The notes beneath the pieces are model-generated. The model saw only the letters and a list, made by a program, of their open reading frames with translations. It was not told the origin of the DNA and did no database searches. Shown here piece after piece: positions 9,769 to 10,880 of a stretch of 64,000 nucleotides of DNA. The stretch is from a virus (Duplodnaviria; Caudoviricetes). The stretch is taken from the IMG/VR virus record IMGVR_UViG_3300013382_000004; one strand, 5' to 3'. Made by a program: the position numbers and the translations under genes. Within the stretch, counting starts at the first letter, position 1, and each line of letters begins with the position of its first letter.

Positions 9769-9898
9769 CTAGACTCGTTTTACAAAATCTGTTGCTCTGC
9801 CAATTGAGCTAACTCCCGATGGTCGGGAGTGAAGGACTTGAACCTCCAACACACAGGCCCATAGCATTTGTTATTGTAAAGTTGCTGTTAGAGTCTAC
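9769..9898 (-). ncRNA. ACAGCAA cassette copy 6 with circularly permuted tRNA
   Basis: T-arm, ACTCCCGA-CCA-TCGGGAGT, D-arm GCTC-AATTGGCA-GAGC. Confidence 0.8.
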
Positions 9899-10025
9899 TT
9901 GAAAGGAATGCTTTTATGAACAATAAAAAATGAACATTAGCTTACAAATAAATTTGTATCTTTACCATGTTTTTACTATAACATAAAATTTTCATTTTGT
10001 CAAGAGTTTTAAAACAAAATTTTAT

Positions 10026-10110
10026 TGGTGGGTGAGGAAGGTGCCGACCCTTCTACTCCGTTAGGAAACAAATTTACAGTCTGTCGTGTTTGCCGATTCA
10101 CTACTCACCC
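10026..10110 (-). tRNA. tRNA-Tyr(GTA)
   Basis: ACAGA-CTGTAAA-TTTGT, long variable arm, CCA. Confidence 0.85.
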
Positions 10111-10138
10111 ATTTAATTATTTCTCTTTTAGAAAGGGG

Positions 10139-10202
10139 CTAGACGCTTTTGTGTATTCTTATTTAACAGATAAGTACATTTAAAATTGCTGTAAGCGTCT
10201 AC
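10139..10202 (-). ncRNA. ACAGCAA cassette copy 7 with anticodon-like hairpin (GTT)
   Basis: CTTAT-CTGTTAA-ATAAG inside GTAGACGCTT/AAGCGTCTAG. Confidence 0.7.
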
Positions 10203-10241
10203 TATAATGAAATCATATTACAAAATTAGCATTTCTGCTAT

Positions 10242-10366
10242 TGGTGCGTCTGGAGAGATTCGAACTCTCGATACCCGCATTATGGGGTTGGATATAAGTC
10301 TTGAACTTATCGAGGCCCTAATGCTATCCAACAAAGTGCGGTGCCTTACCACTTGGCCACAAACGC
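10242..10366 (-). tRNA. tRNA-Lys(TTT) interrupted by minihelix insert 10283-10332
   Basis: Removing insert gives CCGCA-CTTTTAA-TGCGG and a 75-nt tRNA. Confidence 0.85.
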
Positions 10367-10373
10367 ATAAATA

Positions 10374-10501
10374 CTAGAGACATTGTAGTTATGGACTCCT
10401 GCCTTGCCACTTGGCTACACTCTTCAACCGAAGGTGCTCGGATTCGAACCGAGGGATGGGAGTTTGGCTTATTAACTTTCAAAATTGCTGTTAGTCTCTA
10501 C
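10374..10501 (-). ncRNA. ACAGCAA cassette copy 8 with circularly permuted tRNA
   Basis: ACTCC, T-arm CTCGG-TTCGAAT-CCGAG, closed acceptor, D-arm GCC-AAGTGGCAA-GGC, GGAGT. Confidence 0.8.
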
Positions 10502-10676
10502 TTTACAAATATCATCTTATTGAAAGGAAATTATTCATATCAGATAGAGAAAAAGGAGAAGTAGCATTTCGTCAAGTACTAAATCTTTAGCCCTTTGATA
10601 GATTTAAGTTCCCCTCATTTAACTCCGATAAAACTTACTCACACTATCATAAGAACGGATTTCTGATTTGAACAAA

Positions 10677-10752
10677 TGGTGATGGGTGCGGGAGTCGAAC
10701 CCAGCGTTTAGGACGTGAAAGGCCCTCGTCTTAGCCACTTGACTAACCCACC
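10677..10752 (-). tRNA. tRNA-Glu(TTC)
   Basis: AGGGC-CTTTCAC-GTCCT, CCA. Confidence 0.9.
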
Positions 10753-10762
10753 ATATTATAAC

Positions 10763-10880
10763 CTAGACTCTTTTGCGTATTATTCACCACAGAGCGCCCT
10801 CTGACGAGAATCGAACTCGCTAATGATTGTTTTCAAGACAATTGTGTTAACCTTTTAAGGAATTTGCTGTAAGAGTCTAC
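10763..10880 (-). ncRNA. ACAGCAA cassette copy 9 with tRNA permuted at the D-loop
   Basis: ATTGT-CTTGAAA-ACAAT arm, T-arm GCGAG-TTCGATT-CTCGT, closed CAGAG-GGCG-CTCTG. Confidence 0.75.

Follow-up and report, generated by a model that had tools for sequence, protein, structure and literature searches.

The minus strand of the viral sequence analysed here (the window, a stretch of 64,000 nucleotides (nt) from IMG/VR virus record IMGVR_UViG_3300013382_000004) carries an array of transfer RNA (tRNA) genes spanning 4.1-16.3 kb, and five RNAs within this array contain tRNA bodies that are circularly permuted. One and the same element, here called the handle, encloses each of the five; it consists of a 7-base-pair (bp) helix formed between the 5' end and the 3' end, two bases and an unpaired ACAGCAA. 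The handle is present ten times in the window, always in the tRNA array, and five of the copies are without tRNA cargo; a strict handle pattern gives 5 matches in the window against 0.01 expected. The source is a large, AT-rich gut phage, of whose genome the window is a part, and its relatives in IMG/VR measure 206-221 kb when complete and are 82-96% identical in blocks. The phage reads TAG as an amino acid: endonuclease reading frames are open under code 15 and a CTA tRNA lies at 4138-4212.

An earlier note on this DNA had described the permuted bodies and had omitted the shared handle, and its anatomy is borne out by the minus-strand sequence, though weakly for one of the five. The RNA at 9770-9897 (each RNA is named by its lower coordinate) has a cargo of the YrlA type discussed below, opened at the anticodon and reading T arm, closed acceptor, D arm. 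It runs from the 3' anticodon strand through a 5-nt variable region, the T arm (9847-9831) and the acceptor (9830-9812) to U8-A9, the D arm (9809-9794) and the 5' anticodon strand (9792-9788). The acceptor comprises positions 66-72, A73, CCA (9822-9820), U at -1 and positions 1-7, so that A73 pairs with U-1 and an 8-bp helix is closed by the literal CCA loop that had been claimed; it is also a candidate RNase P site. This acceptor is tRNA-Pro-like, and its C1:G72 and A73, with a TGG-G remnant in the same RNA, point to tRNA-Pro ancestry. The 10375 RNA (10375-10500) has the same order and the same opening, with an acceptor-like helix of 7 bp that has one bulge and a 4-nt loop.

The second topology is that of the 10764 RNA (10764-10879), which is opened in the D-loop and reads anticodon arm (10842-10826, with an intact 7-nt loop and TGA at 10835-10833), T arm (10820-10804) and an acceptor hairpin of 5 bp with a 4-nt loop (10803-10790), the halves of the D stem lying at both ends. 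Two further RNAs had been placed with it as probable members. For the 9586 RNA (9586-9700) this holds, since it has an anticodon arm (GGA), a T arm and a 6-bp closed acceptor, with a non-canonical D junction. The 12256 RNA (12256-12377) is a weak case, with a T arm, a long closed acceptor-like hairpin and a degenerate anticodon arm bearing an 8-nt loop; its handle helix has one mismatch, which is paired in relatives. In addition, a conserved 3' hexamer of the 9586 RNA (9613-9606) is the complement of the ACAGCAA box in the same RNA and might serve as a switch by masking that box.

None of the five cargo RNAs is called by ARAGORN as written. The check proposed earlier, re-permutation followed by scoring, was run with ARAGORN by taking for each cargo the best score over all cut and trim points, with the same maximisation applied to 100 dinucleotide shuffles of each. 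The best scores lay between 99.0 and 118.6, against an overall shuffle maximum of 93.0: 118.6 for 9770 (shuffle maximum 93.0), 109.0 for 10375 (89.3), 110.9 for 10764 (90.2), 106.0 for 9586 (91.6) and 99.0 for 12256 (92.7), with the observed score reached in 0/100 shuffles in every case. The cargo-less handles, treated in the same way, scored at most 90. Paired changes point in the same direction. One anticodon stem pair of the 10375 RNA is A-U in 6, G-C in 4 and G-U in 1 of the sequences from close relatives, and compensatory pairs also set its T and acceptor stems apart from those of the window. In the 10764 RNA one T-stem pair is altered on both sides in two relatives, and in the 9770 RNA 12/32 predicted pairs have two-sided changes once three more distant homologs are added.

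Pattern scans of viral contigs returned at least 463 distinct handle elements in at least 233 sequences, of which a few cargo-less ones may be chance. Among the matches listed, to which the following counts for the family refer, the cargo may be absent, a T arm only, an unpermuted D-anticodon-T unit in which the handle replaces the acceptor, T-acceptor-D, anticodon-T-acceptor, or all four arms. The two opening points of the earlier note are those of the window; across the family, bodies are opened at the D-loop, at 26/27, at 29/30 or in the anticodon loop, and some, as just noted, are not permuted at all. In a covariation set of 95 non-redundant elements, chosen by sequence alone, the handle helix closes in 64/95 (swap control mean 2.4, maximum 8), with 4-6 pair types per position, and the acceptor pairs at 6-7 of its 7 positions in 73/95 (control mean 4.0, maximum 12). 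Because this pairing holds across the family while cargo classes and opening points vary, the handle is taken as the constant part and the tRNA body as cargo.

The closed acceptors also bear on origin. N-CCA stands at its canonical place in the acceptor loop of 10/74 closed-acceptor cargos, against 0.8 expected, and in these members a mostly AT-rich spacer of 1-13 nt, never zero, precedes the 5' acceptor strand. Of the two origins suggested earlier, tandem tRNA genes are therefore favoured over ligated circles; the latter are disfavoured, since in the 9770 RNA an extra U separates CCA from position 1, and its CCA loop, which stays the same in 13 variant rows from close relatives, is inherited. 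Many other family cargos are sealed by loops of 3-4 nt, e.g. GAAA, GTAA or TTCG.

The closest known relatives by design are the bacterial Y RNAs. YrlA (RF02553), a permuted, tRNA-like Y RNA of bacteria and phages, is bound by Ro60/Rsr, and in Mycobacterium smegmatis it has a 7-bp acceptor with N-CCA and is cut by RNase P (PMC4201824). The 9770 RNA matches the Rfam YrlA model at 9776-9874, where the alignment takes in the T arm, the acceptor and the D arm, with 37.4 bits and E 3e-5 against a cut-off of 69 bits, and the other handle RNAs are unmatched by that model. The likeness lies in a terminal helix with a permuted module of T arm, closed acceptor and D arm, found in 9770 and 10375 and not in 10764, 9586 or 12256, and in the occurrence of several RNAs per genome, some without a tRNA module, linked to a gene of the Ro60 fold. 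In contrast to YrlA, the Ro-binding motif GNCGAA(N)G is absent from all ten handle RNAs, which have ACAGCAA instead; the putative phage partner is DUF2828 and not TROVE; the phage RNAs lie far from its gene, whereas YrlA lies within about 4 kb of Rsr; and no cargo that is opened in the D-loop and keeps its anticodon loop intact is described for YrlA. Since score, binding motif and TROVE partner all fail, the handle RNAs are not members of YrlA.

The YrlA alignment led to a search for a Ro60 gene in the relatives, given that YrlA binds Ro60/Rsr. TROVE (PF05731) was found in 0/5 near-complete relatives and a DUF2828 gene in 5/5, and in all five a handle ends just before the Shine-Dalgarno sequence of that gene; a handle also lies upstream of the gene in 7/27 other DUF2828 loci. 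Other large phage contigs with a confirmed cargo-bearing handle RNA encode DUF2828 in 20/24 cases, against 5/25 large tRNA-bearing controls (Fisher p 1e-5, for contigs that are not independent and with kinship uncorrected). Two of the four DUF2828-negative handle contigs have a divergent homolog detected by a custom profile, and the other two are incomplete (53% and 71%). Conversely, a confirmed RNA with handle and T arm occurs in 3/5 DUF2828-positive and 0/20 DUF2828-negative controls. An AlphaFold model of the DUF2828 protein, built from 87 sequences (predicted local distance difference test 70.9, predicted template modelling score (pTM) 0.52), was compared with the PDB by Foldseek. Ro60 structures from phage phiLo, Deinococcus, human and Xenopus are the top 12 listed matches (E 5.7e-7 to 9.4e-5) and rank above lone vWA domains; the best is phiRo60 of Thermus phage phiLo, at a sequence identity of only 16-17%. 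The protein is thus predicted by modelling to be a ring of the Ro60 fold, with a HEAT ring and a vWA domain.

The pairing extends to cultured phages, namely a Felixounavirus, Bacillus phage PK-3 and mycobacteriophage Kingsolomon, whose DUF2828 gene is annotated 'Ro-like RNA binding protein'; in phage Aeh1 it was not found in the stretch examined. The Felixounavirus Escherichia phage vB_EcoM_H12 (PP952733.1) has, besides a cargo-less handle, a T-acceptor-D handle RNA at 11386-11520, under two coding sequences annotated 'hypothetical' and 1 kb from the DUF2828 gene. DUF2828 occurs in 695 cultured phage records, and no ligand of it is known in the literature searched. Two reading frames of the window (564 and 414 amino acids) that had been considered as Ro60/TROVE candidates were rejected, being a UvrD helicase and a poly(ADP-ribose) polymerase (PARP).

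Taken together, these results suggest that the rotated-tRNA RNAs are Y-RNA-like partners of a phage Ro60-like DUF2828 protein and display tRNA mimics, a reading to which we give a probability of about 0.68. It is backed by observed or computed evidence, namely the structure seen by covariation, family membership, co-occurrence, the leader copy and the predicted fold. The RNAs would be small genes built like bacterial Y RNAs, with a protein-binding handle and a variable cargo. They would share polycistronic transcripts with the tRNA array, begun at early-type promoters (10947 and 10003), and tRNA-processing enzymes would release them as separate RNAs. The handle would be bound by the DUF2828 ring, to which co-occurrence and the leader copy link it. 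At the leader handle, free DUF2828 protein may repress its own translation, and such autoregulation would titrate the protein against the handle RNAs. The cargo would be a sealed tRNA body into which the handle is grafted either at the anticodon, keeping the elbow as in YrlA, or at the D-loop, keeping the anticodon arm and T arm, and it would show a tRNA shape to some tRNA-binding protein without decoding. With the protein link taken as given, a tether or adaptor for processing, repair or degradation enzymes is a possible role for the cargo, and the one we put first, tentatively and at less than even odds; bait or sensor for host tRNA nucleases and a protective scaffold only are both doubtful, to the same degree.

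Several observations weigh against this reading. The DUF2828 gene is not in the 64-kb window, so that for the source genome the link rests on the relatives; a strict search finds the leader handle in only 12/32 DUF2828 loci; and the fold support is modest, with Foldseek template modelling scores of 0.33-0.44 by query and the pTM given above. In addition, a permuted T-acceptor-D module without a handle lies at approximately 8943-9020 (minus), beginning right after the CCA of tRNA-Leu(TAG). Its pattern was matched in the window only, and it means that permuted bodies can arise without the handle.

The variation of the anticodon loops bears on a different proposal, close to that of the earlier note, in which the RNAs are free decoys whose elbow and anticodon mimics soak up host tRNA-targeting proteins, the handle merely clamping the ends and no phage protein being involved. 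Among 15 orthologs the anticodon of the 10764 RNA is TGA in 8, GCA in 6 and GAA in 1, while U33 and A36-A37-A38 are always kept. It is the most variable spot of an otherwise near-invariant RNA (in the 50 nt after the anchor the only differences are one compensatory change in the T stem and a shift of the final A-run by one base), and the variants are spread over both upstream linker variants. This pattern suggests that the loop is selected as a mimic of an anticodon, although in 15 close sequences it is also compatible with drift. Intact cargo loops among the matches listed are enriched for TCT, TTT and TGT (15/31, against 110/990 real tRNAs of the same loci), a bias uncorrected for shared ancestry, which could produce it too. 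Lys(UUU) and Thr(UGU) are known targets of the defence nucleases PARIS AriB and P2-OLD (PMC12409363, PMC12445682). Both the switching and the bias are thus compatible, as sequence patterns, with a decoy role. However, free decoys leave unexplained the invariant unpaired ACAGCAA, the five cargo-less copies, the DUF2828 leader copy and the genome-level co-occurrence, and the documented phage answer to such nucleases is a resistant replacement tRNA (PMC12409363, PMC12445682). We regard free decoys as improbable: the claim that these are tRNA mimics and not decoding tRNAs stands, and the mimics are better seen as cargo on a conserved handle linked to DUF2828.

The same anticodon data allow a more specific version of the Ro60-like partnership, which we consider unlikely but less so than free decoys. 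In it, the phage protein would carry interchangeable sealed tRNA mimics, anticodon baits included, with the triplet switched under pressure from host nucleases, and would form an RNA-programmed sponge or sensor against tRNA-cleaving immunity. As part of this version, RNase P may also open the 9770 RNA and leave it in two pieces with a CCA end; this RNA is a candidate for such cleavage because it has a 7-bp acceptor with N-CCA, as in M. smegmatis YrlA. The earlier statement that none of the RNAs can be aminoacylated holds for the RNAs as written, with the qualification that a processed CCA end is possible for 9770.

More improbable still than free decoys is a handle that works without a protein, either as a processing or stability signal or as a small mobile element landed in tRNA genes, with the cargos as decaying remnants. 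The wide variation of cargo types and opening points, the degenerate 12256 RNA and the single-sequence folding z-scores of only -0.1 to -2.1 for the five cargo RNAs would fit such decay. It is countered by the compensatory changes in cargo stems among close relatives, by the tight link with DUF2828 and by a fixed synteny in related genomes; no target-site pattern or transposase was seen.

The 3' half precedes the 5' half in the permuted tRNA genes of Cyanidioschyzon, other algae and Thermofilum, and in two-piece transfer-messenger RNA (tmRNA). The handle RNAs resemble the algal and archaeal genes in being opened in the D-loop and anticodon regions, and a pre-tRNA of that type, with the handle as splice signal and with cutting, ligation and opening of the acceptor loop yielding working tRNAs, could draw on the tRNA-grade scores of the re-permuted bodies, the N-CCA encoded in acceptor loops, the Rnl1-type RNA ligase, kinase-like AAA_33 protein and Thg1 encoded in the window, and four array tRNA genes whose inserts need excision and ligation. 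Unlike those genes, the handle RNAs have termini that form the 7-bp handle in folds and alignments, with no bulge-helix-bulge motif; two of the three main copies have no complete acceptor and the anticodon is not conserved; and unlike tmRNA they have no tag reading frame. Working tRNAs are hardly credible. In the 10764 RNA, positions 65 and 8 are no more than 14 nt apart, the discriminator is missing, 2:71 is G-G, the variable loop is short and unsuited to Ser, and the anticodon switches, while an intact gene for Ser(TGA) is present at 8097. The acceptor bulge of 10375 is conserved, and in 9770 the would-be anticodon forms no canonical loop and has been altered by mutation or deletion in relatives. 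Many family cargos are closed by loops of 3-4 nt, and every second handle is empty of tRNA. We keep a very small chance for working tRNAs because four tRNA genes of the array are split by nested mini-tRNAs.

Other Ro60-bound RNAs can be compared as well. Yrn1 and Yrn2 of Deinococcus radiodurans are Ro60-bound and tRNA-linked, Yrn1 keeping an anticodon-like arm and a T arm (PMC4201824), and Thermus phage phiLo has Yrl1 and Yrl2 with phiRo60 (PMC12135203). Like the handle RNAs, these are co-transcribed with or derived from tRNA, but they carry a metazoan-type or CGAA binding motif, and Yrn1 is not permuted like the handle cargos. A broad definition of Y RNAs looks for an encoded protein of the Ro60 fold, found by prediction in 5/5 close relatives, and for an end-joining helix beside a conserved, putatively protein-binding motif, found in the handle. 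One further source briefly mentions a jumbo-phage ROT/TROVE protein with a tRNA-like partner (PMC7824862). The dictyostelid Class I RNAs (RF01414) also have a short end-joining stem, a conserved, unpaired 11-nt motif that adjoins the 5' strand and ends in C-A-A, and a variable interior; they differ in being eukaryotic, 42-65 nt long and without tRNA cargo, and in having an RRM protein as known partner (PMC7919456). The handle family may bear on their origin. The cargo-less handle RNA at 5510-5575 (minus) gives a weak Rfam match to this class (5512-5573, 22.3 bits, E 2.5), below the cut-off of 41.5.

No Rfam family or paper was found for the handle or the D-loop-opened cargo, in a literature search mostly outside subscription journals, and blastn of the region against cultured phages gave ordinary tRNA matches only. 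The locus contributes the two topologies side by side in a single array, an anticodon that switches between orthologs, and a member with a CCA loop. Y RNAs and their tRNA-like domain are without a settled function. If the partnership with DUF2828 is true, it would be a second system of the Ro/Y kind, centred on phages and based on another binding motif, it would name a ligand for DUF2828, and the purpose of tRNA mimicry would become testable in phages such as Felixounavirus vB_EcoM_H12.

The remaining handle RNAs without tRNA cargo lie, all on the minus strand, at 10140-10201, 5707-5835 (with an AU-rich loop), 5408-5489 and 4303-4368. Two sigma-70-type promoters were identified by consensus match on the same strand, one at 10919-10947 (12/12, extended -10), which precedes the 10764 RNA by about 40 nt, and one at 9975-10003 (11/12), upstream of the 9770 and 9586 RNAs. 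A TTCCTTTCAA motif stands ahead of three handle RNAs (9905-9897, 9710-9700 and about 10530; minus) and resembles an anti-Shine-Dalgarno sequence or a processing signal. Identity with skipping-rope RNA (RF02924) was rejected: it has no Rfam match on the handle RNAs, and only a chance match of 20.5 bits on tRNA-Leu at 9490-9572.

In four tRNA genes of the array (minus; 10283-10332, 13173-13230, 7412-7499 and 5301-5359) the anticodon loop is interrupted by a nested mini-tRNA with a 7-bp acceptor, a T-like arm and an N-CCA end. Exact excision of the mini-tRNAs restores Lys(TTT), Gly(TCC), Thr(TGT) and Ile(TAT), with ARAGORN scores of 108-120, and the Lys, Gly and Thr genes are uninterrupted in relatives. 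These split genes are related to the Lak tRNA introns (PMC6784885). The array further holds a CCG-anticodon tRNA at 6072-6145 and a tRNA-Pro (ARAGORN: TGG) with an apparently unusual anticodon loop at 15997-16070 (both minus). The phage CCA-adding enzyme (PF01743) was found in 0/5 relatives. Minus-strand genes at 17842-21960 and 37741-40095 encode Thg1, PARP (WGR and catalytic domains), a macro domain and Rnl1 with the kinase, and an aminotransferase class V gene lies at 23899-25017. Directly after tRNA-Ala, a structured stretch at about 8515-8590 (minus), without an Rfam hit, resembles by eye a hepatitis delta virus-type (theta) ribozyme.
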